Origin: Planctomycetota bacterium
Lineage (GTDB): Bacteria > Planctomycetota > UBA8108 > SXIK01
Direction: 5' to 3'
DNA length: 64,000 bases
Assembly: GCA_965223265.1 (NCBI GenBank)
Contig: OZ244999.1
Location: 5,600,001-5,664,000, forward strand
Below, in pieces: positions 3,465 through 52,554 of this stretch (position 1 is the stretch's first letter; the number at the start of each line of letters is the position of its first letter). A program made the translations under genes and the position numbers. A model generated the notes under the pieces. That model did no database searches. It was not told the origin of the DNA and saw nothing but the letters and a program-made list of their open reading frames with translations.

Positions 3465-4586
3465 CTACGCTAAATCGACGCGACACGAGGCCACTTGATC
3501 GTCGTCGAGCTCAACACCGAGACCTGGTCCCGACGGCGGCATGGCACGGCCGCCACTGAGCTCAAGCGACTCGGCGAGCAAATCTGTGTCGTAATAAAGC
3601 GGCCCGATGATATCACAAGGGAACTCCTCCGAGCCGATCCCTGATGTCGCCATGGCGAGGTGGATCATCGCCGCGCTCGCCACACCGAGCTCCAGATTGC
3701 TCCCGATCGTGCACGTCGCCCCGGCTGCTTGGGCGACCGCCGCGATCTTCAGCCCGGCGCTGATGCCGCCGCCCTTGCCGACATAGACCGACAGGACGTC
3801 TGCGGCGTCGGCGCGCAAGACCGCCATCGCCTCCTGGAGATTGAAGACGCTCTCGTCGGCCATGATGGGAACGCGCACGCTGCGGCGCACGTCAGCCAGC
3901 CACGTGACGTCGAGCGGCTGAACGGGCTGCTCGGCAAAGAAGATATCGTACTCCTCAAGCTCGCGAATCATCCGGATCGCGACGCGCGGCGACCATCCAC
4001 CATTGGCATCGATGCCGAGGCGCACATCCGGTCCGATCGCCTGGCGAATGGCACGCACACGGGCGATGTCCTCCTTGGGGTCAATCCCGACCTTGACCTT
4101 CATGGCACGAAAACCAACGTCGATCGCCCACGAAGCGATGTCGGCTGCACGTGCTGGATCGGTACCCGAAATCGAAAACTTCGTCGTCACCGCGTCGCGC
4201 GCTGGCCCGCCGAGCAAGCGGTAGAGCGGAAGTCCAGCGACCTTCCCGAGAATGTCCCAAAGTGCCATCTCAAGAGCTGACTTGGTGAACACATGACCGA
4301 CGATCGGCGCTTCGATACGCGCAACGAGTCGTTCGATCTGCAGTGGATCCTCGCCGATCAGGAGGGGCGACAAGACTCGCTCAATGAAGTGCGCCGATGT
4401 GACGTAATCCTCACCGCTCCAGATCGGGTCGCAGGAAACTTCGCCGAGTCCGACGACACCGTCGTCGGTGTGCATCTTGACGAGAAGGAAAGTGTTCTCC
4501 GCGGTGAACTTCTTGCTCGAACGGATCGCACGCTCCGGATTCTTCTTCAGACGTACAGGGATCGTCTCGATGCGGGTGATCTTCAT
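3465..4586 (-). CDS. Mandelate racemase/muconate cycloisomerase family enolase
   Basis: MKITRIETIP start, KVKVG, DANGGW, EQP and MADES motifs, C-terminal GPGLGVELD. Confidence 0.9.
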   Translation of the reverse strand: MKITRIETIPVRLKKNPERAIRSSKKFTAENTFLLVKMHTDDGVVGLGEVSCDPIWSGEDYVTSAHFIERVLSPLLIGEDPLQIERLVARIEAPIVGHVFTKSALEMALWDILGKVAGLPLYRLLGGPARDAVTTKFSISGTDPARAADIASWAIDVGFRAMKVKVGIDPKEDIARVRAIRQAIGPDVRLGIDANGGWSPRVAIRMIRELEEYDIFFAEQPVQPLDVTWLADVRRSVRVPIMADESVFNLQEAMAVLRADAADVLSVYVGKGGGISAGLKIAAVAQAAGATCTIGSNLELGVASAAMIHLAMATSGIGSEEFPCDIIGPLYYDTDLLAESLELSGGRAMPPSGPGLGVELDDDQVASCRVDLA

Positions 4587-4923
4587 GCGAGGTCTCGAGG
4601 CTGACGGAACAGACCCATCGGGGGCAGCGGGTCTGCTCCAACATAACAGGAAGCTATAGAGCTGGGACAATGAAATGAAGTTCGCGCGCTGGTCCACCGC
4701 GTCGGGAGGAGTCATCGGTGACGGTTTTCTTGGGGAGGAACTGTGGGTGACTGCGAGGGCGAGGGCACCCTTGAGGCCGGCTTTCGTTCGGTTACGATCG
4801 ACAAAACCGCCGCACGCACGCCCGGAGCAGCAGAGCTCTTCTCTCCGTTCGGCTCGATCGCCGCGGTCGCACCGGTGTGCGGGGGCGTTCTCCGAATCCG
4901 TCTCTGCCTCCGACTCTGTCTCT

Positions 4924-6460
4924 GCGAGCGGCAATGAGTCCGCACGCGAAGCGTCTCGTTTGGCGGCCAGGCAGCAAATGCCCTTGCTGCCTGGCCAAGA
5001 CCGTTTTGGTGCGCTGAGGTTTCCTGAAGTTTTCGAAAGAGTCTATCGCGCGGTTGAAGCCAGCCTTCCATACGCACTTTGGGTGAGGAGTCTGTCCTGG
5101 AGTCCTCTGTGCAAGTTGGGGTCCGAACCGTCGTGGTGCTGCACACTCCGTCGCGAACTCCTGGTATGATCGAAGGAAGTTTGGACGCCCTCGATCGGTT
5201 CAGTGCAGAGGTCGCAGTCACCAAGACGAGACTTTTCACGCGGGTAGATCCTTCAGAGGTTTTTCAGTCGCCTCGTAATGACACAGGAGGCTCAGGCCGA
5301 GCGACGCGTCGAGCGCGAGGCGTTGTAGAGTGGATCGTAGCGCTCGCCGCTGGCCCAGAGGTGATGCATCAGCACGGCGAGCTTTCGTGCCACGGCGACC
5401 GTGGCTTGCTTTTTGCCCCTGGCAGCGCCGCGCTGTCCCAGCCGCTCACCGAAGCGCCTTAGATCGCAGTCCTCCCCGAACGGCCCCAAGATATAATGCG
5501 CGCTGCCGACAAGCAGTCGGCGTAGGTAGCCGTTGCCATACTTCGAAATACGAAGCTGTGGAGTCCTCGACGAAGAGTCGTGCTGCTTCGGGACGAGTCC
5601 GAGATAGGCCCCGACCTTGCGGCTCTTGGAGAAACGCTCCGGGCTCTCCAGGCTCAAGACAAACGCCAGTGCCGTCAGTGGCCCTACGCCGTTGATCTCT
5701 TGAAGGCGCTTGGTCTCTGGGTACTTCTCTGAGAGCGCCTTGATCTCTCTGTCGTAGCTGCGCACCGTGGCGCTAAGCTGTCCGATCTGCTCGAGCATCG
5801 GTAGCACCGCCGCCTCGAGCTCCTCGGGAATATCCTCCCTGACTTTGTAGTGGAAGGCGGCGCTTGAGCAGCTCTTGAGGCGATACCCGCTCGACTTGAC
5901 GAGACCTCGCACGCTGTTGATCAGTGTCGTGCGAGTGCGCACTACCGCGTCACGCGCACGGATGACTGCCAGGTCGTTTTGCGCTGAAAGCTGGCGGTGA
6001 CGAACCGGTCGCAACAGGCGCGGGCTGCCCCAGCCCAGCGTCGCCAGGGTGACGGCGTCGAGCTCGTCGTTCTTGCGACCGTTGGCGGCAAGAGCGCGCC
6101 CAGCGCAGACAGGATTGGCAACGATCACCTCGAAGCCGAGCTCTTCGAGCACCGCACTGACCCACGGCGAGTGCGTGCTCGCCTCGCAGACCACGCGCGA
6201 GCCTCGCGGGAACTCATCAAAGCGCTTAGCGAGCGCCGAGCGTGTCGTCGCCACGCGCTCGTTGGCGAGGATCTCTCCATCGAGCGTTATCGCCACCAAG
6301 TGGCTAAGGCGGTCGCCGAGATCAAGGCCGATAGACAACATACGCTGAGTTTGATTACTTTGGGACATGGTCAGTCTCTCCTTCTGGGCTCAAAGCCCGG
6401 TTAATGTTGCAGATCCTTCTTCGGATACTGCGTGGAGGGACTGGCCTTCTCATCCCATCT
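4924..6460 (-). mobile_element. IS110-family (IS1111-type) element, copy A; lacks the terminal 129 bp of the right end
   Basis: 4924-6463 aligns with 6652-8191 at an offset of 1728. Left sub-terminal IR at 6442-6453. Flanked on both sides by microsatellite. Confidence 0.85.
5292..6368 (-). CDS. IS110 family transposase/recombinase (copy A)
   Basis: DEDD RuvC-like N-terminus (IGLDLG, CEA, KNDELDA), GVGPLTA, AYLGLVP and AVARKLAV motifs. Confidence 0.95.
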   Translation of the reverse strand: MSQSNQTQRMLSIGLDLGDRLSHLVAITLDGEILANERVATTRSALAKRFDEFPRGSRVVCEASTHSPWVSAVLEELGFEVIVANPVCAGRALAANGRKNDELDAVTLATLGWGSPRLLRPVRHRQLSAQNDLAVIRARDAVVRTRTTLINSVRGLVKSSGYRLKSCSSAAFHYKVREDIPEELEAAVLPMLEQIGQLSATVRSYDREIKALSEKYPETKRLQEINGVGPLTALAFVLSLESPERFSKSRKVGAYLGLVPKQHDSSSRTPQLRISKYGNGYLRRLLVGSAHYILGPFGEDCDLRRFGERLGQRGAARGKKQATVAVARKLAVLMHHLWASGERYDPLYNASRSTRRSA

Positions 6461-6779
6461 CCGTCTCCGTCCGTCTGTCTCTGCCTCCGACTCTGCCTCC
6501 GACTCCGACTCTGTCTCTGCCTTCCATGAGAAGGCCAAAAAGTCAAGAGAGGCGAACGTGGTCGCCGCCCGAGCGCAGCGAGGTCAATCGTTCTCTGCGC
6601 CCAGCGAAGGTCAGTTGTAGGGTGGGAGGCCTGCGCGGCAGGGAGGGGCCCGCGAGCGGCAACGAGTCCGCACGCGAAGCGTCTCGTTTGGCGGCTGGGC
6701 AGCAAATGCCCTTGCTGCCTGGCCAAGAGCGTTTTGGTGCGCTGAGGTTTCCTGAAGTTCTCGAAAGAGTCTATGGCGC

Positions 6780-7015
6780 GGTTGAAGCCAGCCTTCCATA
6801 CGCACTTTGGGTGAGGAGTCTGTCCTGGAGTCCTCTGTGCAAGTTGGGGTCCGAACCGTCGTGGTGCTGCACACTCCGTCGCGAACTCCTGGTATGATCG
6901 AAGGAAGTTTGGACGCCCTCGATCGGTTCAGTGCAGAGATCGCAGTCACCAAGACGAGACTTTTCACGCGGGTAGATCCTTCAGAGGTTTTTCAGTCGCC
7001 TCGTAATGACACAGG
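6780..7015 (-). ncRNA. Putative bridge/seek RNA downstream of the transposase (equivalent in copy A about 5052-5287)
   Basis: Long non-coding region conserved in both copies. It contains short segments matching the flanks and the predicted circle junction in the order expected for target loop then donor loop. Boundaries are approximate. Confidence 0.6.
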
Positions 7016-7019
7016 CGGC

Positions 7020-8096
7020 TCAGGCCGAGCGACGCTTCGAGCGCGAGGCGCTGTAGAGTGGATCGTAGCGCTCGCCGCTGGCCCAGAGGTGGTGCATCAG
7101 CACGGCGAGCTTTCGTGCCACGGCGACCGTAGCTTGCTTCTTACCGCGAGCGGCGCCGCGCTGCCCCAGCCGCTCACCAAAACGCCTCAGATCGCAGTCC
7201 TCCCCGAACGGCCCCAAGATGTAATGCGCGCTGCCGACAAGCAGTCGACGTAGGTAGCTATTGCCGTACTTCGAAATACGAAGCTGTGGAGTCCTCGACG
7301 AAGAGTCGTGCTGCTTCGGGACGAGTCCGAGATAGGCCCCGACCTTGCGGCTCTTGGAGAAACGCTCCCGATTCTCCAGGCTCAAGACAAACGCCAGCGC
7401 CGTCAGTGGCCCTACGCCGTTGATCTCTTGAAGGCTCTTGGTCTCTGGGTACTTCTCTGAGAGCGCCTTGATCTCTCTGTCGTAGCTGCGCACCGTGGCG
7501 CTAAGCTGCCCGATCTGCTCGAGCATCGGTAGCACCGCCGCCTCGAGCTCCTCGGGAATATCCTCCCTGACTTTGTAGTGGAAGGCGGCGCTTGAGCAGC
7601 TCTTGAGGCGATACCCGCTCGACTTGACGAGACCTCGCACGCTGTTGATCAGTGTCGTGCGAGTGCGCACTACTGCGTCACGGGCACGGATGACTGCCAG
7701 GTCGTTTTGGGCTGAGAGCTGGCGGTGACGAACCGGTCGCAACAGGCGCGGGCTGCCCCAGCCCAGCGTCGCCAGGGTGACGGCGTCGAGCTCGTCGTTC
7801 TTGCGACCGTTGGCGGCAAGAGCACGCCCTGCGCAGACAGGATTGGCAACGATCACCTCGAAGCCGAGCTCTTCGAGCACCGCACTGACCCACGGCGAGT
7901 GCGTGCCCGCCTCGCAGACCACGCGCGAGCCTCGCGGGAACTCATCAAAGCGCCTAGCGAGCGCCGAGCGTGTCGTCGCCACGCGCTCGTTGGCGAGGAT
8001 CTCTCCATCGAGCGTTATCGCCACCAAGTGGCTAAGGCGGTCGCCGAGATCAAGGCCGATAGACAACATACGCTGTGTTTGATTACTTTGGGACAT
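7020..8096 (-). CDS. IS110 family transposase/recombinase (copy B)
   Basis: 358 aa, about 8 substitutions versus copy A, same motifs. Confidence 0.95.
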   Translation of the reverse strand: MSQSNQTQRMLSIGLDLGDRLSHLVAITLDGEILANERVATTRSALARRFDEFPRGSRVVCEAGTHSPWVSAVLEELGFEVIVANPVCAGRALAANGRKNDELDAVTLATLGWGSPRLLRPVRHRQLSAQNDLAVIRARDAVVRTRTTLINSVRGLVKSSGYRLKSCSSAAFHYKVREDIPEELEAAVLPMLEQIGQLSATVRSYDREIKALSEKYPETKSLQEINGVGPLTALAFVLSLENRERFSKSRKVGAYLGLVPKQHDSSSRTPQLRISKYGNSYLRRLLVGSAHYILGPFGEDCDLRRFGERLGQRGAARGKKQATVAVARKLAVLMHHLWASGERYDPLYSASRSKRRSA

Positions 8097-8186
8097 GGTC
8101 AGTCTCTCCTTCTGGGTTCAAAGCCCGGTTAATGTTGCAGATCCTTCTTCGGATACTGCGTGGAGGGACTGGCCTTCTCATCCCAT

Positions 8187-8455
8187 CTCCGACTCTGCCT
8201 CCGACTCCGACTCTGCCTCCGACTCCGTCCGTCTGTCTCTGCCTCCGACTCCGACTCTGCCTCCGACTCCGACTCTGTCTCTGCCTCCGACTCTGCCTCC
8301 GACTCCGACTCTGCCTCCGACTCCGTCCGTCTGTCTCTGCCTCCGACTCCGACTCTGCCTCCGGCTCCGACTCTGTCTCTGCCTCCGACTCTGCCTCCGA
8401 CTCTGCCTCCGACTCCGTCCGTCTGTCTCTGCCTCCGACTCCGACTCTGCCTCCG
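8187..8455 (+). repeat. Mixed hexamer microsatellite (CTCCGA/CTCTGC/CTCTGT); related tracts at about 4896-4926 and 6459-6522
   Basis: Seen directly; surrounds and separates both IS copies. Confidence 0.95.
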
Positions 8456-8536
8456 CCCGGAAACCCAGAACCCAAGCAGGGAAATGCGTTCGGCGGGCTC
8501 GAACCAGCCGAACGTCGTTTCCCGCCGGCGTTGAGC

Positions 8537-11500
8537 TCAAGCTTCAGGGCACGCGTCGTGCACGTTGCAAGGCAGCCCGTCGGGAGTCGGGTCGGTGCCG
8601 CAAGAGTTCGGCACAGGGAGTGGCCCGTGCGCAGCGAAGAGATGGAGAAGAACAGCGACTCCGTCCGTGACGTTCACGCGTCCATCATCGTTGGCATCGG
8701 CGCTGCGGAGGCACGTGGGAGCTGCGCCGCGGCGGAAGAGATAATTAAGGATGTGCAGGGCATCGTTCAAGTCGACATTCCCACTCGCATCGCTGTCGCC
8801 TCGCCGAAACTCAATGACACCGGCGCCAAATGGAACCTTGACAAACGAGAGCACACGAGGCTGCGCGATCGTCTCAAACTGCTCGTCGAGGTAGGAGATC
8901 ACCGCCTCTTCCGGCGGCTCTCCCGGTCGCGCGTCATCTGGAGCTTCCAGCTCCACGGCGCGAATTCGACGCGACAGAGTCGCCACGTCGACCGGCGGGT
9001 CAAAAATGATCCAATAGCGCACATCTTGATTGTGTCGCTGCGCGCTGTACACCAAGCGAAAATAGTCAACTACGACGCGGCGCACCCCGGCGATCTCTAC
9101 AGCCGCCAAGGTCAAGGCAGCGGGAGCAGATTCGAACGTACTCAACTCGTCGAGAAATCGTTCTCTCAGCTGCAGCATCGTGCCATCCTCCGCCGTCACT
9201 GAGATTTCGAAGAGCGGCAGAGCCTCATAAAGGCAGGAGGAGAATCCCATCACAGGAACGCTGTCGCGCGCTCCGAGTAGCTCGAGCTCGAAGGTCAGGA
9301 ACTCTTCGTCGATCACACGACTGGCAACAATCGGGATTTCTCCACGCCCGCGGTAGTTCAAGTTCGAAAGCGTCAGCGTGAAGAGGTCCCCGGTCGGCAA
9401 GTCGAACTCTTGTCGATATCGAAATCGATAGATCGTCTCGCTCCCGTCACTTATCTCCCGAACCTCGAATCTCCCGTCTTCGCGCGGCGTTGCGACCATC
9501 CGCTCCGGTCCGACCTCGACATGCTCGAAGATGTCGGCAGTGAACGAGCCTTTACCGGCGGGCAGCGACACGGTCCCGGGAGTGAACTCCACCGTCGCCT
9601 TGAACTCATACTCGGTAGCCGGTGGACGCCCGTCACGCTCCTTGCTGAACACCGCACAGGCAATAGCTCCAGTCGGAATCTCGAGCTCAAATACAGGCTT
9701 GCGAGGAGTCGTCGAGGCGATCAGGAAGGGGCGAACCTGTTTGATCGCCAATGAGCCGTCAGCCTCGATCTTGAACTCGAAGTCGAGAAGCACTTGTTCT
9801 GGATCAAAGCCCTCCGGATCGACCGGAAATCGTTCCTCGATGCGCCACATAAGGCTCCCCAGTTCCCGGAGCTGATCGTCGGATAAAACGTTCTGGTCTG
9901 GCCCTACGAGCGAAGAGCGTCGGCTGCGAACGATGCGTACGACTTCACCATCCTCGACTTCGAGCAGGTTCCGTTCGACAAGTTCACCGGGCTGCGGGCT
10001 GACGACGCTCGCCTCACCGATCTGCGCCGCGATCACGAACCGCTGATCATCGACGTTCGCGGGGTTGCCAGTGAACGCAACGCCGTTTGCGGCCTCGTCG
10101 AGGAACGTGCGGCTAACGAGGATTCCCATGGCCGCAAGATCTTGGGGTATCTGAAAGAAACTTCGCTCTTCGTACGCTCGAAACGTCCACAAGCTCGTCC
10201 ATACTTTCTTCAAAGCTCTTTCAACCGTTCGTTCATTAGAACGGAGCGGATCGCAGTGTGAGCCCTCGCGCTCCTCGACATCGATCGTGTCTTGTGCGCA
10301 CACAGAAGTGGACTCGTAGAGGCCTGCGCCGTTGAACTCGAGCTGGTCCTCAACGTTGGACGACGACCGAAAACGCACCATGGTCCGCGTGTCTCCGAAC
10401 ACCGTGGCAATCCGCTCCACGAGCGCGCCGACAAGCTCGGGTGCCACGACGCCGTGATCGCGGGTGAACTCCCGAAACTCGTCCAGCAAACGAAATCTCG
10501 TCTCGGAATCCGTCACGAATTCTGGCGACTCCATCAGATCCCGCAAAAACTGTTCGTAGGTCACCACTTCACCGTTGACGACACGTGTGTTCGAACGCAA
10601 GAACTCAAGGTAGTGATGCATCGGAATAGCGAATCCAACTTCTCGATAGGGCGTGAGCTCGTCGGTCAAAACGCTCTGCAGGCGCGCGAAGTTGGCCGCC
10701 TTGCCGCCAAATCGCGACACCGGCGCGGCCGCTGCGTCCGTATCGATCTCCACCAGCGAATCAAGTACTGAGTAATCGGGGTCGACTACTGGATCGGCCG
10801 CCAACTTCGGTCGTCGGAGTGACCAGAAGGTCTCGGCCTCCTCTATAGAAGCGACGTCGACCATGTAGTCGGAAGCGGTCACCTCGAGCCGCACAAGCTC
10901 ACCTTCGAGCTCGCGGAACTTTTCCGTCGCGCCGTCGACGAACGCGTTCGGTGTACCGCGACGCGCCGTCCGCACCGCGATGTGGCTCAACTCGCCTTGC
11001 ACCTCACCGGTGAGCACACCTCCGACAACTCCTTCGATGTCGCGCGGCGCCTGATCGACAACGACAACATCTTGGAAAGTGAAACGCCCGCTCCGATTCG
11101 CCGCCTCAAACTCTTCAAGGTTAAAGATGCGTACACGTCCGTAGCCGACGGCGAGCGTATACGGCTCGAATGTGAAGCCAGCGCCGCCGTCCGATTCGAA
11201 AATGCGAAACGGCACGCCGGCCCACGTCGCCGCGGCCTCCCGCGCCGCCTGTCCAAGTGGCTGATATGCCAGCGACCCAAGGTGAAACGCGGCACTCAGC
11301 TTCGTGTACACGTCTTCCACTTCGTCCTGGGTCAGCTGCTCGCGAAAATCAAAGCCCGTGTCCGCGAACACCGAGAAAGCGTAGATCGGTGCCCCATCTT
11401 CGATGTGCATCGAGATCGAACCGACGAAGTACTCGCGACTCTGACGCCGGCCGACAAGTTGGTTGTACGTTTCGCGGTCGCTTACGACGTCACCGAACCG

Positions 11501-20322: not shown

Positions 20323-22254
20323 ATGACGCCGCACGTTCGAGGCGCGAGTTTCGAACTCGCGTGTCCCCCACCGACGACGAGCCGAACGACCGCTGTGCGC
20401 GAAGCTAACGATTCGACAGACCTCTCCAGAACGACTCCTATGACACCGCCACCAGCGCCATCGGATCTGGCCGCGCCGGGAATCATGGGATCTCATGCGC
20501 CCGACGGAACGCGGCAGCCGTCGTCGACTAAGCCACTGCAGGCTTCCAATCTGCACTACGTGCTTCACGTTGCCAGGCTTCGGTATCGGCAATGGAAGAA
20601 CAACCTCGGACATGTCCGACGGGATTCGCTCACCAGGATCATCGTGGTGCTGTTCGGGCTCTTGAACGTCTTTTTGCTCGGGTTCGCAGTCTCCTATAAA
20701 TCGTTTCGGTTTATCGAGGAGTTCGAAGCGTTTGGCGTCGCGCTCAACTCTAGAATGATATCGCTGCTATTCTTTGCGCTCTTCGCCCTCGTCGTGCTCT
20801 CGACCATCATCGTTACTTACGCGACTCTGTTCCTCGCTAAGGAGACGAGCTTCTTCTATGAGCATCCGCTACCACCGCGGAGCATTCTGACGATCAAGTT
20901 GACCGAGTCGATCGCATTCAGTTCGTGGGCAACACTTTTCCTCGGCTATCCCGTCCTCGTTTCGTTCGGGGCACTGCGTGGAGCAGGATTCGTCTACTAT
21001 TTCGAGGCAGCGGCGATCCTCGTGTTGTTCCTAGCTTTCGCGGGCCTCACCGGCGCGTTCTTCAGCATCCTCCTCGCGCCTGTGATTCGGCGTCTGTCAC
21101 TGCGTCAAATCGCACTCTTTTGCCTGCTCGCGTTCGTTGCTGTTTGTCATGCGTTTCTCAAGTCGTTCAATTTCGGCGATGTCGGCGAGCAGGACCAACT
21201 GCTTCTCCTCGATCGTTTCACCTCCAGCCTCTTGATCATTCACTCACCGTACTTCCCAAGTTACTGGGCATCGGCGGGCGTCCTTTCAGCGGCCGCCGGC
21301 AATCACCAAGAGTCGCTCATCCATACGGCCACACTCTTAGCCAACACACTGATATTTCTTCCGTTCATCGCTTGGTACGGAAACCGCTTTTACGGCACCT
21401 CTTGGCTCGTAGGCCGCTCGCTTCCATTCGCGAGAAAACGCCGCGCGAAGGGCGAACCCGCGGCAGCGCAGATCTCGACGGTGGTGCGCGCGTTCAACCG
21501 GCGACGCCTCTCTGCGCTCCTCTTGAAAGACATGCTCGTGTTCTTACGCGACCCGGCCCAGCTCAGCCAGTCCGTGCTCTTCTTTCTCCTCATGGCGATC
21601 TACTCGCTCAGTCTGCTGCGGGTGCCAACGTTTTTCTCAACGCCGGTCCTGCAGAAAATCCTTTTCTTCGCCAACCTGACAGCCCTTTGCATGATCCTCT
21701 CGTCGTTCACGTCACGTTTTCTCTTTCCGCTCATCAGCCTCGAAGGAAGGGCTTTCTGGATCGTCGGTTTGGCGCCGATGCGTCGATCGGCTCTGCTGAT
21801 CCAAAAGGCGGTTTTCGGTCTCGCGATTACGCTCGCGGTGGGCATTCCGATGACGATCGTCTCGAATCTCGCACTGAATATGCCCTTTGAGATGGTTTTG
21901 AGCGCGGTCTACATCGTCACTCTTGTTGGCCTTTGCCTGACCGCACTCGCGATTGGGCTCGGCGCGGCCTATCCAAACTTTGCTGAAGACAACCCCTCAA
22001 GAATCGCAGTTGGAGTAGGTGGGACCCTCAACTTCTTTGCGAGCGCGCTCTCGGTCGCTGTCATCATCACCATCATCGCGCTCCCTCACCTGATACCGCG
22101 ACTCGCTTCGGAAGAGCCAATGCTCGGAAGCATGCCGCCGCCCTCCACGATCGCGGTTTTCGCCGCCCACGCCGGCGCCACCGTTGCCGCCGCGGTACTC
22201 TCATTGTTTTGCTACCACTTCGGCTCACGTCATCTCGAAGGATACGAGTTTTGA
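20323..22254 (+). CDS. Putative ABC exporter permease
   Basis: More than 10 hydrophobic helices, KDMLVFLRDPAQ and FPLISLEG motifs, near an ABC ATPase. True start is probably later. Confidence 0.8.
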   Translation: MTPHVRGASFELACPPPTTSRTTAVREANDSTDLSRTTPMTPPPAPSDLAAPGIMGSHAPDGTRQPSSTKPLQASNLHYVLHVARLRYRQWKNNLGHVRRDSLTRIIVVLFGLLNVFLLGFAVSYKSFRFIEEFEAFGVALNSRMISLLFFALFALVVLSTIIVTYATLFLAKETSFFYEHPLPPRSILTIKLTESIAFSSWATLFLGYPVLVSFGALRGAGFVYYFEAAAILVLFLAFAGLTGAFFSILLAPVIRRLSLRQIALFCLLAFVAVCHAFLKSFNFGDVGEQDQLLLLDRFTSSLLIIHSPYFPSYWASAGVLSAAAGNHQESLIHTATLLANTLIFLPFIAWYGNRFYGTSWLVGRSLPFARKRRAKGEPAAAQISTVVRAFNRRRLSALLLKDMLVFLRDPAQLSQSVLFFLLMAIYSLSLLRVPTFFSTPVLQKILFFANLTALCMILSSFTSRFLFPLISLEGRAFWIVGLAPMRRSALLIQKAVFGLAITLAVGIPMTIVSNLALNMPFEMVLSAVYIVTLVGLCLTALAIGLGAAYPNFAEDNPSRIAVGVGGTLNFFASALSVAVIITIIALPHLIPRLASEEPMLGSMPPPSTIAVFAAHAGATVAAAVLSLFCYHFGSRHLEGYEF

Positions 22255-32846: not shown

Positions 32847-35102
32847 ATGATGTCGAGCACGCGATCCGGTGTACGTCTGGGTCTCCTTGCATGGACCTTC
32901 TTCGTCTCTACACCTCCCACCGCCGCCAACGACTCAGACTCGGCCGCGTTTCGCGGGACGACCGCGTACTACGTCCTCAAGACCGCGCCGAGTTTCGGCC
33001 ACGGAAGTTGGCGGACGTTCGCGTTCCGCCTCGCCCTGCGACAGCCGTATGCCGACGCGCTGTTCAAGGATCTGTTAGAGCACGCCACCCTTTCGGGTCA
33101 ACTTTACGGACTCTGCGGGCTATGGTTCACGGATCAGGGCTCCTTTCACCGGCGCCTCGAACAGTACCAGTATCGCGACGATCAGATCGAGCGGGGCGAC
33201 AACAACGGCGTAGGGATCTGCGGCAACACATTCGACCGTCCCATGCGCGAATTCATCGTTCGAGAGGGGCGCAGCGTGATCCGACTCGATGGTCCACACG
33301 ACTCTGTAGAGGATTGGTGCACGCGGACAGGGCGCAAGGTCTCCTACCGTGACTACGACTTTCTCGGTGGCGGTTGGCCAGCCGCCCTCGCGAGGTCATC
33401 GGAGTTGCCTTTGAGTCAGGAAACGGACCCTCTCGATGAGCTCTTCCGGCGCGATCTTGAAGCCGGGTTCGTGCCACAGGCCGCCGATCCCTCGCGTGAG
33501 GATGAACACAGATGGCGATACGCGCGTGTGCTGAGGAGGTACGATCACGCGCCCCCTGCCGTGGTCGCCGCGCTGGAGGACGAGCGTCCGGAGGTGCGTA
33601 TGGCGACCCTGGAGGCGCTCTCCGCGTCGGGCCCGCTTGCCGCGGATCTCGCCGAGCGCATTGCAGCGGCGGCTTTCGCGACGGAGCGCCGCCTGCGATG
33701 GAACGCTCGCAACACACTCTTAGCGATTGGTCCGTGGGCCGGACGATGTTGGCCCGTTATTTTCGAACGAATCGAGACGGACGGCGGTGCCGACAGGGAC
33801 GCACGACGCCTGTCTGAAGATCAACAAAACGAAAGGGAATTCGCTCGCTTCCTGACGAGCCTCGTCAGTCGAGCCTCGATCGAGGATCTTCGCCACATGC
33901 GACGGCTCCTCGCTCACCGGGACAACCGCATTCGCACGTGGGCTCTGAAGGGTTTTAGATCTGCCCCCGAACTCTCGAGCTCCCTCCTGTCGGAGGTAGA
34001 GCGCCTGCTCCGAGACCCTGTCGATGACGTACGGATAGCAGCGAGCGCGGCACTCGCACGTCTCGCCACAGCCGAGATGGGAAACCTCTCGATGCCTGCA
34101 GTCGAACTGATGCTGACGGCGTTCGAAAATGACCCGGTTGAGGATGTTCGACTGAACGCCGCAATTGTTCTTGGAGCACACGGCGAGAGCGCGAGTTCGG
34201 CTCTTCCAGCGCTCACCGCGGCACTCCGAGAAACATCTGCCGCGGTGCAAGTTGCGGCGGCACACGCTCGCTGGAGCATCGACGGCAGTGGTCCGGACTC
34301 GGTGCCGATGCTCTTAGCCAACCTCGCGAGCAGAACCACGAAATCGGACGCCCGAACCAGAGCCTTGGAAGTACTGTCGAACCTGGCCGCACAGGAGGTC
34401 GTGGCCGAGGAGCTCAGCGGCTGGCTCCGCCGCGACCCTGACGGAATCGGTCGCGTCGAGCTCGTTAGAGCCCTCGGACGCGCGCGAAGAATGGAGCGAC
34501 CTCTCGAGGAGCGCTCACCCCTCCTTGCATCGCTAAGGGAAATCTCGGCTCACGACGACCTTCGCGTGGCGACCCACGCCGCGGATGCCCTTTACGACTT
34601 CACCGGGGAGCCGGACCTAGCCGTCGGACTCTGGATCGAATACTACTACGAGCGCGAGGAGAGTGGCGATGGGTACAACTCCATACGCGCGCTGCAAGCT
34701 CTGATGCGTTTCGGACCGCAGGCGCAGCCTGCTTCGGAAATCGTCACAAAGATACTATCTGGCGGGTCAGAGCCCGTGAGGTATCCCTTCGCCAGGCAGC
34801 TCCTCCAAGCGATCGGCCCTGCCGCCGACGCAGATGCGATCGAGGCATACCTGACGTGGATGGAGCAGCAACGCGGCCGTTGGATTCTGCCTGAAATTGT
34901 CAAGACTGCCGGAACCCTCGGCGCCGCGGCACGCAAGACTCTGCCGTTTCTGATTCAACTCCTCGACCACGAGCGTCTTGAAGTACGTGAGGCAAGCCGC
35001 CGGGCGATCGAGGACATCATCGCGGCGCTCGGTGAGGAGGACTTCCCCGCTGCCCCGCTCGCTCCGGAGTCGTCAGTCAGCCGCGAACGGCTTCGATCGT
35101 GA
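32847..35102 (+). CDS. Secreted HEAT-repeat protein
   Basis: Signal-like N-terminus, repeated LxDxxxxVRxxAxxAL units. Confidence 0.75.
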   Translation: MMSSTRSGVRLGLLAWTFFVSTPPTAANDSDSAAFRGTTAYYVLKTAPSFGHGSWRTFAFRLALRQPYADALFKDLLEHATLSGQLYGLCGLWFTDQGSFHRRLEQYQYRDDQIERGDNNGVGICGNTFDRPMREFIVREGRSVIRLDGPHDSVEDWCTRTGRKVSYRDYDFLGGGWPAALARSSELPLSQETDPLDELFRRDLEAGFVPQAADPSREDEHRWRYARVLRRYDHAPPAVVAALEDERPEVRMATLEALSASGPLAADLAERIAAAAFATERRLRWNARNTLLAIGPWAGRCWPVIFERIETDGGADRDARRLSEDQQNEREFARFLTSLVSRASIEDLRHMRRLLAHRDNRIRTWALKGFRSAPELSSSLLSEVERLLRDPVDDVRIAASAALARLATAEMGNLSMPAVELMLTAFENDPVEDVRLNAAIVLGAHGESASSALPALTAALRETSAAVQVAAAHARWSIDGSGPDSVPMLLANLASRTTKSDARTRALEVLSNLAAQEVVAEELSGWLRRDPDGIGRVELVRALGRARRMERPLEERSPLLASLREISAHDDLRVATHAADALYDFTGEPDLAVGLWIEYYYEREESGDGYNSIRALQALMRFGPQAQPASEIVTKILSGGSEPVRYPFARQLLQAIGPAADADAIEAYLTWMEQQRGRWILPEIVKTAGTLGAAARKTLPFLIQLLDHERLEVREASRRAIEDIIAALGEEDFPAAPLAPESSVSRERLRS

Positions 35103-52210: not shown

Positions 52211-52440
52211 GCGTGGGCGTGGGCGTGCCAGCCTTCCGCCTCCACCTCCGTCTCTCGGCAGTTCCCGTTTGCGTTTGCGTTTGCGAGTGCGTTTTGCGAG
52301 TGCGAGTGCGAGTGCGTGAGAGTTTGCGAGCGCGTGAGCGTGGGCGTTTGCGTGGGAGAATGCGTGGGCGTTTGCGAGCGCGTGGGCGTGCCAGCACTCT
52401 GTATCTGATCCCGCCTCTGTATCCCTATCCGTATCTGCCT
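52211..52440 (+). repeat. Degenerate hexamer repeats (GCGTGG/GCGTTT/GCGAGT, then CTCTGT/ATCCGT type)
   Basis: Seen directly downstream of the CHAD stop. Confidence 0.85.
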
Positions 52441-52534
52441 TCCATGAGAAGACCAGAAAGTCAAGCGAGGCGACCGTGGTCGCCGCCCGAGCGCAGCGAG
52501 GTCAGTTGTAGGGTGGGCGGCCTGCCCGCGAGCG
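52441..52534 (-). mobile_element. Solo right-end fragment of the IS110/IS1111 element
   Basis: TCTGC-CT-TCCATGAGAAGACCA...GTGGTCGCCGCCCGAGCGCAGCGAGGTCAGTTGTAGGGTGGG...CCCGCGAGCG aligns with 6516-6658, with two internal deletions. Confidence 0.8.
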
Positions 52535-52554
52535 AAGCCGCTCGTTCCATGCTG

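Follow-up and report, generated by a model that had tools for sequence, protein, structure and literature searches.

A probable guide RNA downstream of the transposase of an IS1111-type insertion sequence in a Planctomycetota genome

The window, as the whole stretch of DNA analysed here is called, comprises 64,000 nucleotides from a Planctomycetota bacterium (GCA_965223265.1, contig OZ244999.1, positions 5,600,001 to 5,664,000 of the forward strand), and the positions given below are those of the window. Two copies of an insertion sequence (IS) of the IS110 family lie in it side by side, both on the minus strand: copy B (6521..8186), a complete IS1111-type element of 1666 bp, delimited by comparing the four genomic copies and their flanks, and copy A (4926..6458), which is 97% identical to B. 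Our subject is the non-coding region downstream of the transposase of copy B, in which a preliminary description had picked out four short segments as the guides of a bridge RNA, namely, TCTCTGCACT (segment 1, 6939-6930), GACGGAG (segment 2, 6880-6874), CCCAACTT (segment 3, 6848-6841) and ATGGAAG (segment 4, 6799-6793), all read on the minus strand.

The transposase/recombinase of copy B is encoded at 7020..8096 on the minus strand and is 358 residues long; together with its counterpart of the same length in copy A (5292-6368, minus strand), it carries both PF01548 (E 7e-18, 65.3 bits) and PF02371 (E 7e-18, 65.2 bits), and it scores 195 bits, against a cut-off of 140, with the NCBIfam model NF033542, 'IS110 family RNA-guided transposase'. 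Both the DEDD (RuvC-like) N-terminal domain and the IS110-type C-terminal domain are present, and D19, E62, D101, D104 and S265 are unchanged throughout 43 aligned relatives. The C-terminal motif, GLVPKQHDSS, retains G257, L258, P260 and S265, with serine as residue 266; for IS1111 this motif is given as GL-P----S(T)G (PMC11187229). Relatives of the transposase number thousands, the closest non-self match being 71% identical, and the identity to any plasmid-borne IS110-family protein is at most 34%. The copy A transposase differs from that of B at eight residues, among them G64S at a nearly invariant glycine, and a paralogous IS1111-type transposase, 43% identical, is found elsewhere in the genome (G000:C1:2060023-2061405; loci L036 and L121).

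The 9.18-Mb genome holds four full copies of the element, copies C and D lying outside the window, plus several 3'-end fragments. In the sense of the transposase, all full copies read [AG]GAG followed by ATGGG-ATGAGAAGGCC at the left end (LE) and GGCCTTCTCAT-GGAAG followed by GC[AG]GAGAC at the right end (RE). The tips of copy B are, therefore, ATGGG and GGAAG, the core dinucleotide is AG (CT on the plus strand), and both tips and subterminal repeats agree with those of relatives. The LE subterminal repeat, ATGAGAAGGCC at 8181-8171, has its complement at 6536-6526 in the RE (GGCCTTCTCAT, minus strand); these inverted repeats are 11 bp long and begin 5 nt from either tip, and, of the 75 relatives and copies that could be parsed, 62 showed the ATGAGAAGG... 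repeat as well. The LE measures 90 nt (8186-8097) and the RE 499 nt (7019-6521), the longer side being downstream of the transposase. In all four copies, AG is common to both junctions, ending the left flank and ending the RE; insertion is site-specific, and the junctions share the core dinucleotide only. Subterminal repeats (7-17 bp), a long RE and a shared core have been described as hallmarks of IS1111 (PMC11208160; PMC11187229), and it is on account of the transposase domains, the 11-bp repeats, the 90-nt LE, the 499-nt RE and the AG at both junctions that we place the element in the IS1111 group of the IS110 family. Copy A has its own copy of the RNA (5035-5240) and has lost the final ~133 bp of its RE, including the subterminal repeat, so that it is probably incapable of acting as a donor.

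The element is inserted in hexamer-based tandem arrays that recur across the genome. For copy B, the left target plus core is GTCGG + AG (8187..8193) and the right target is GCAGAGAC (6513..6520), both in transposase sense on the minus strand. The array at 8187-8455 has a period of 18 nt and ~14 units, and it follows closely on the stop codon (8537) that ends an 1801-residue open reading frame; several overlapping open reading frames cross it, none of them convincing, and arrays of this kind, which act as insertion sites, occur at dozens of genome places. Joined element ends would read ...CTCATGGAAG ATGGGATGAG... Neither this circle junction nor an empty site was seen in the contigs of four DNA-type sequencing runs; one joint, 6538 to 7888, was found in a single contig with 20-letter sides and is too weak to be relied on.

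Several further observations concern the right end. In copy C (G000:C1:402085-404194; locus L002/L005/L006), the final 204 bp of the RE are present as three tandem units, at whose junctions ...CTCATGGAAG is joined to the internal sequence GCAGCAAGGG, which is preceded by ..CCAG in the element; it looks as if the RE had recombined with an internal pseudo-target, AG/GCAG. A solo RE remnant of ~100 nt, without transposase or RNA, lies on the minus strand of the window at ~52438-52540 and ends CTCATGGAAG/GCAGATAC within another hexamer array, and similar remnants are found at four other places in the genome. Near the right terminus there is a -35-like TTGACN, both in the window (6537-6560) and in the right ends of loci L037-L116: among 50 distinct ends of relatives, 45 carry TTGACN, and in 41 of these 45 it stands 21-22 nt before the terminus (20 nt in the window). 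Joining of the ends would set GAAG/AT behind it as a weak -10, giving a candidate junction promoter of the kind published for ISEc11 and IS621.

The non-coding region downstream of the transposase is conserved. Iterated nhmmer searches, seeded with the region from the window and run on the loci of 80 relatives, located similar sequence on the downstream side of the transposase throughout the loci, with 84 matches, 72 of them distinct and the window included. The 80 loci (proteins 47-55% identical) were taken from named genomes via the alignment of 43 relatives and derive, mostly as metagenome assemblies, from Acidobacteriota, Dehalococcoidia (Chloroflexota), Eremiobacterota, Gemmatimonadota and Planctomycetota; large genome collections were used because genomes of the same order gave a match in just 2 of 21. 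When 65 distinct RNA sequences were aligned with MAFFT, RNAalifold recovered two helices (P2 and P4), in which 10 of 17 pairs were kept through two-sided changes, and three more helices were added by eye, bringing the pairs counted to 30 in total. Over the 65 sequences, 89.9% of the cells of these 30 pairs are paired, compared with 33-47% in controls whose pairing partners had been displaced by 1-3 columns; two-sided changes affect 19 of the 30 pairs and 220 cells, compared with 35-50 in these controls, and not one of 500 shuffles reached any of the pairing measures.

The core of this non-coding (bridge/seek) RNA extends from the 5' strand to the 3' strand of helix P1 (6785..6962, minus strand) and thus lies, at 6962-6785, downstream of the transposase stop (7020). 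A covariance model, R1, matches the window at 6763-6968 with 97.3 bits (E 1.8e-28), although this is so by construction, as the window is a row of the training alignment; the model also recovers the four genomic copies and a fifth RNA (83 bits) that is absent from the training set. Weak minus-strand matches at 20548-20598 (14.1 bits), 21391-21470 (9.9 bits) and 34221-34254 (7.9 bits) are far below the model length and probably spurious. The fifth RNA lies downstream of the 43%-identical paralogous transposase (G000:C1:2060023-2061405); its loop strands, GUUCGUUUC-CU and CACGA-AG, fit the CAAACGAAG tandem repeat of the paralogue's left flank, whereas its right flank does not fit, and its right end is atypical (GGCCTTCTACGAAG).

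All helix strands are on the minus strand. P1, formed by 6958-6962 and 6785..6789 (3' strand), closes the whole RNA; 74.5% of its cells are paired, and its three inner pairs are well supported and its two outer pairs weakly so. P5, in which GUCU (6952-6955) pairs with GGAC (3' strand, 6849..6852), closes the target-binding arm and is 82% paired. The outer stem of this arm is P2 (5' strand 6942..6951, with 6862-6870), with 98.3% of cells paired and two-sided changes in four of nine pairs, and the base of its inner hairpin is P3 (5' strand 6926..6929, with 6883-6886), with 87.2% paired and two-sided changes in three of four pairs; this hairpin also forms in minimum free energy (MFE) folds. Finally, P4 (5' strand 6831..6840, with 6802-6817) forms a hairpin between the two putative donor-binding strands; its two parts are 100% and 90.5% paired. 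In the resulting model, P1, P5 and P4 meet in a three-helix junction that encloses the target arm, consisting of P2, an internal loop and the P3 hairpin.

The helices also bear on the strand that is read. They contain many G-U pairs (15 UG at pair 24-174 of P5, beside 23 UA and 16 CG, seven UG at pair 26-172 and seven GU at pair 17-241), and, because these would be A-C mismatches on the other strand, the RNA should be on the strand of the transposase. That a functional RNA is instead made from the plus strand would accord with the promoter scan, which returned no site in 6450-8250 and so does nothing to favour the minus strand; it would, however, turn the G-U pairs into mismatches and depart from the IS1111 RNAs published, which are in transposase sense (PMC11187229; PMC12288879), and we regard it as very improbable.

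Re-reading of the sequence confirmed the positions of the four segments and the matches described for them. On the plus strand, the left flank of copy B reads TCTCTGC (6514-6520), followed by CT (6521-6522); the right flanks read CTCCGTC in copy A (6459-6465) and CTCCGAC in copy B (8187-8193), so that GACGGAG is matched exactly in the former and with one mismatch in the latter, as had been stated; CTTCCAT occupies 6521-6527. The remaining counterpart, CCCATCTT, is not contiguous in the window and belongs to the putative circle junction, in which ...CCCAT (8182-8186) would be joined to CT and T(6523). The one-base difference in segment 1 between the copies, G5211 versus A6939, is likewise present. 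In the comparative structure, all four segments occupy unpaired strands between covarying helices, and none lies in a stem. Segment 1 is held by the 5' strand of the target loop, GAUCUCUGCACU (6930..6941, minus strand), between P2 and P3, and segment 2 by the 3' strand (6882-6871, minus strand), between P3 and P2; segment 3 makes up the entire strand from P5 to P4, and segment 4 lies between P4 and P1. Segments 1 and 2 thus lie in the two strands of an internal loop, and segments 3 and 4 in the single strands of the three-helix junction. The MFE fold also sets segments 1 and 2 opposite one another between P2 and P3, and both helices persist in a fold with the four segments held open.

Could the four matches be short words that arose by chance in a GC-rich region flanked by low-complexity repeats, with no guide function? 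Each match is just 7-10 nt long, and the repeat-array target offers many registers. When the 500-nt non-coding region was simulated 20,000 times with a first-order Markov model, the probabilities of the four patterns came to 0.017, 0.061, 0.18 and 0.015 (product 2.8e-6), so that a single pattern may be expected in up to 0.18 of such simulated 500-nt regions, whereas all four together appeared in none; as the patterns were picked after the fact, these figures are optimistic. A stronger answer comes from the family comparison, in which the same columns follow the flanks of 44 distinct relatives whose targets are unrelated and, as set out above, the segments take their places in the loop strands of a covarying structure. 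We consider a chance origin extremely improbable.

For the target guides, correspondence with the flanks is seen both within the genome and across relatives. No columns of the RNA vary more than those of segments 1 and 2 (1.4-2.0 bits; the 5' loop strand corresponds to columns 38-48), which stand beside an invariant scaffold. Covariation was measured by comparing the 44 distinct guide pairs of relatives with 1864 non-cognate pairs. When the 5' loop strand is reverse-complemented and compared with the right junction, the longest exact match averages 7.2 in cognate and 3.3 in non-cognate pairs, and matches of at least 7 occur in 29/44 and 9/1864, respectively; when the 3' loop strand is compared with the left flank, the mean longest match is 5.6 as against 3.4, and matches of at least 6 occur in 24/44 compared with 40/1864. 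Counted in register over the 46 alignment rows that entered, left-target positions -1 to -5 match in 45, 37, 38, 36 and 32 rows (98/80/83/78/70%), compared with non-cognate fractions of 0.20-0.26, and the position beyond -5 is at background. AG follows the five variable bases in 64 of 65 rows. The left guide of the family is, therefore, five variable bases plus AG, and segment 2, GACGG + AG (6874..6880, minus strand; identical to left target plus core), is exactly this. Its agreement with the left flank is 7/7 in copies A and C, and 6/7 positions agree in copy B. In copy D, guide and flank alike read GACAGAG, where the others have GACGGAG, which makes a small compensatory pair, albeit one in which both words are common in the arrays. 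For the right target, counts by MAFFT column were blurred (0.28-0.57), with the loop unaligned at its 3' end, and were replaced by the best register for each pair, which, being optimized pair by pair, is backed only by the non-cognate control. The right guide of the family amounts to about 7-9 nt plus CU, and CU follows directly after the base pairing with right-target position +1 in 33 of 45 combinations, with CA in five. In the genome, the right flanks of all four copies begin GC[AG]GAGAC, and the guide complement is GCAGAG[A/G]: segment 1 can pair with the core AG and the right target GCAGAGA if one A (6932) is left unpaired.

On the donor side, both segments are on the minus strand. Segment 3, CCCAACUU (6841..6848), resembles a right donor guide (RDG) and is complementary to A-AG-ATGGG of the putative circle junction at 7/8 positions, all except an A opposite A at +1, which is the majority state among combinations of relatives (21/39). 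Segment 4, AUGGAAG (6793..6799), resembles a left donor guide (LDG) and equals the last 7 nt of the RE at 7/7 positions. Among relatives, AUGGAAG is found with the tip GGAAG in 26 cases and AUAGAAG with the tip AGAAG in 18, with two exceptions in 46, and on a FastTree tree of 45 transposases this G/A state changes at least seven times. The comparison is less kind to the donor assignment in three respects: segments 3 and 4 vary little among relatives (entropy mostly 0-1 bit), as do the element ends; segment 3 covaries no more than modestly with the LE tip (matches of 0.85/0.90/0.74/0.74 in cognate and 0.85/0.76/0.59/0.48 in non-cognate combinations); and the independent pairs of segment 4 on supported branches, concordant in their changes, number two, with which a sign test cannot reach significance. 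All three are what one would expect if only segments 1 and 2 were guides, and segments 3 and 4 were protein-binding or scaffold motifs whose likeness to the ends is coincidental or inherited. Against this stand the concordance, in 44 of 46 relatives, between the segment 4 state and the RE tip, together with those seven or more changes, the variant pairs that fit (UAUAC with the tip GTATA, CUCAA with TTGAG), the strand pattern on the donor side, which equals that of the target loop, and the donor-binding loops established for IS621 (PMC11208160). A scaffold role in place of donor reading thus appears improbable. By analogy with that system, and from position and strand pattern, the reading of segments 3 and 4 as donor guides seems well founded; it is less well founded by covariation. 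The test of guide-target covariation among homologous elements, for which the preliminary description had called, came out in favour of segments 1 and 2.

Taking the evidence together, we are confident that 6785-6962 of the minus strand encodes the guide RNA (bridge RNA or seekRNA) of this IS1111-type element, and that the segments are its guides, as had been proposed: their position in loops, the hypervariability of the target guides and the tracking of flanks in relatives all support that proposal. By analogy with characterized elements, the RNA would be transcribed from the transposase strand, processed and bound by the protein. A number of observations nonetheless weigh against this view. 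In addition to the empty promoter scan, Rfam 15 gave no match at E up to 1 in 4500-8600, and R1 gave no match to an E. coli plasmid element (28% protein identity). The single-sequence fold is only weakly better than shuffles (z -1.68 for 231 nt, -2.35 for 500 nt), and, in the unconstrained MFE structure, segments 1 and 2 pair in part (CUCUG with CGGAG). Because the single-sequence folds are weak and pair these two segments, the comparative structure is preferred; the pairing itself is to be expected where a pair of guides reads both strands of a single repetitive site. In the protein, residue 266, beside the conserved Ser265, is a serine, whereas glycine is found there in 38 of 43 relatives. 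As for the sample, the ends of relatives were located by a rule that assumes a conserved ATGAG... repeat, and the 80 loci yielded 75 entries with parsable RNA, 62 with ends, 56 usable and 44 distinct guide pairs; loci were dropped when no ATGAG-type repeat was recognizable, the contig end was reached, N was present or the spacer was unusual, and 18 of the 80, without usable ends or guides, were thereby left out before counting. Moreover, the relatives share ancestry, and counts based on shuffles, therefore, overstate independence.

The register of segment 1 is irregular. The loop strand reads AUCUCUGC-A-CU, and it fits all four insertion sites only with an offset of one base: the rule of the family predicts AG-TGCAGAGAT, whereas all four sites read AG-GC[AG]GAGAC, and in strict register none of eight positions pairs. 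With A6932 left unpaired, there are seven pairs in copy B, six in copies A and D, and six plus a possible G-U in copy C; the guides of A and D have a C where that of B has a U. The extra A of the preliminary description is thus present, but it is not normal for the family, in most of whose combinations CU stands directly behind the +1 base, and an offset of this form was seen in none of the relatives. Since the 5' loop strand has the consensus length, the RNA itself carries no insertion. The nearest parallel comes from two insertions of one relative (loci L057/L059), where CCCUGAG-CA-CU fits right flanks beginning CTCAGG.. with a two-base offset only, unless CA is read as the core complement.

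Two explanations may be offered. Under the first, the true right target of segment 1 is the in-register TGCAGAGAT, and the four insertions are near-cognate or off-target events of an element poorly matched to its host. The usual position of CU in the family and the consensus length of the loop speak for it, as does the genome itself, in which the in-register site ACGGAGTGCAGAGA occurs 0 times, the offset site GACGGAGGCAGAGA five times and the relaxed offset form 58 times. On the other hand, GC[AG]G comes after AG in all four full copies, and in the solo RE remnant and at the junctions inside copy C (its pseudo-target) it is GCAG that does so, and this shared AG/GC[AG]G makes the offset pairing look like the working mode; we consider the near-cognate explanation rather unlikely. 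Under the second, the duplex tolerates or requires a single unpaired A between the core and the right-target pairs, a bulge-tolerant reading that we put forward only tentatively.

Among known systems, the closest likeness is to the IS1111 seekRNAs of ISEc11, ISKpn4, ISPa11 and ISPst6 (PMC11187229), with which the element shares an RNA in a long non-coding region downstream of the transposase, subterminal inverted repeats, and two short segments that match both target strands and overlap at the insertion point. The target arm, from P2 to P2 (6951-6862), measures 90 nt, and the short seekRNAs 82-96 nt (PMC11187229). Unlike these, the present element targets hexamer tandem arrays and has its right-target guide offset by one base. 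Durrant et al. (2024) predicted a bridge RNA for 93% of the IS1111 elements in ISfinder (PMC11208160). Downstream of a Roseomonas plasmid transposase, R1 gives only 9.9 bits, in the right place, and it does not reach the E. coli plasmid element; membership of the class is, therefore, assigned from these features and not from sequence homology with tested RNAs.

The IS621 bridge RNA (PMC11208160; Hiraizumi et al. 2024, PMC11208158) similarly has a target site and a donor site, target first, each with a bottom-strand and a top-strand reader that both include the core dinucleotide. The two differ in that the IS621 RNA lies upstream, in the LE, whereas the RNA here is downstream, in the RE; the core of IS621 is CT in element orientation, and here it is AG; and the donor site would here be a three-helix junction enclosing the target arm, whereas in IS621 it is a separate stem-loop. 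The order of the guides differs as well. In IS621, the 5' loop strands are the left target guide (LTG) and the LDG, which pair with the bottom DNA strand (Durrant et al., PMC11208160); here, in element orientation, the 5' strands are those of segments 1 and 3 and would pair with the top strand, giving the order right target guide (RTG)-LTG and RDG-LDG. Siddiquee et al. (2024) report such a reversed order for IS1111 members, with the segment complementary to the top strand lying 5' of that complementary to the bottom strand (PMC11187229). The order LTG, RTG, LDG, RDG proposed in the preliminary description must, therefore, be replaced by RTG, LTG, RDG, LDG: the flanks had been named on the strand opposite the transposase, which leaves the geometry the same and swaps the labels. 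ISPpu9 of Pseudomonas putida (Pares-Guillen et al. 2025, PMC12288879) also recombines at an invariant AG at both ends and inserts into multi-copy repeats, intergenic ones in its case, and its modular products from alternative end-like sequences recall the solo RE remnants as well as the tandem RE units seen in copy C. It belongs, however, to the IS110 group, without subterminal repeats and with its bridge RNA upstream, and its downstream RNA, Ssr9, is described as not needed for transposition.

By extension from IS621, ISEc11 and related work, the following sequence of events may be envisaged. The target loop of the RNA would read the GACGGAG/GCAGAGA site in the hexamer repeat arrays, whereas the two single strands of the junction would recognize the ends of the element itself; once loaded with this RNA, the DEDD/serine recombinase would bring a circularized form of the element together with the target site and recombine the two by strand exchange at AG.

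This mechanism was already published in 2024, and what the window offers is an ordinary, correctly read instance of it, plus the odd one-base offset. RNA-guided recombinases of the IS110 family are under development as programmable DNA-insertion tools, and the window provides a clean natural example from a little-studied clade, from which a clade-specific structural model, rules for guide length and register, and the compensatory pair of copy D within a single genome can be reused. The offset, if functional, bears on the off-target rules of bridge recombinases and, if the tentative reading given above is true, would be a natural example of bulge-tolerant target reading by such an enzyme.

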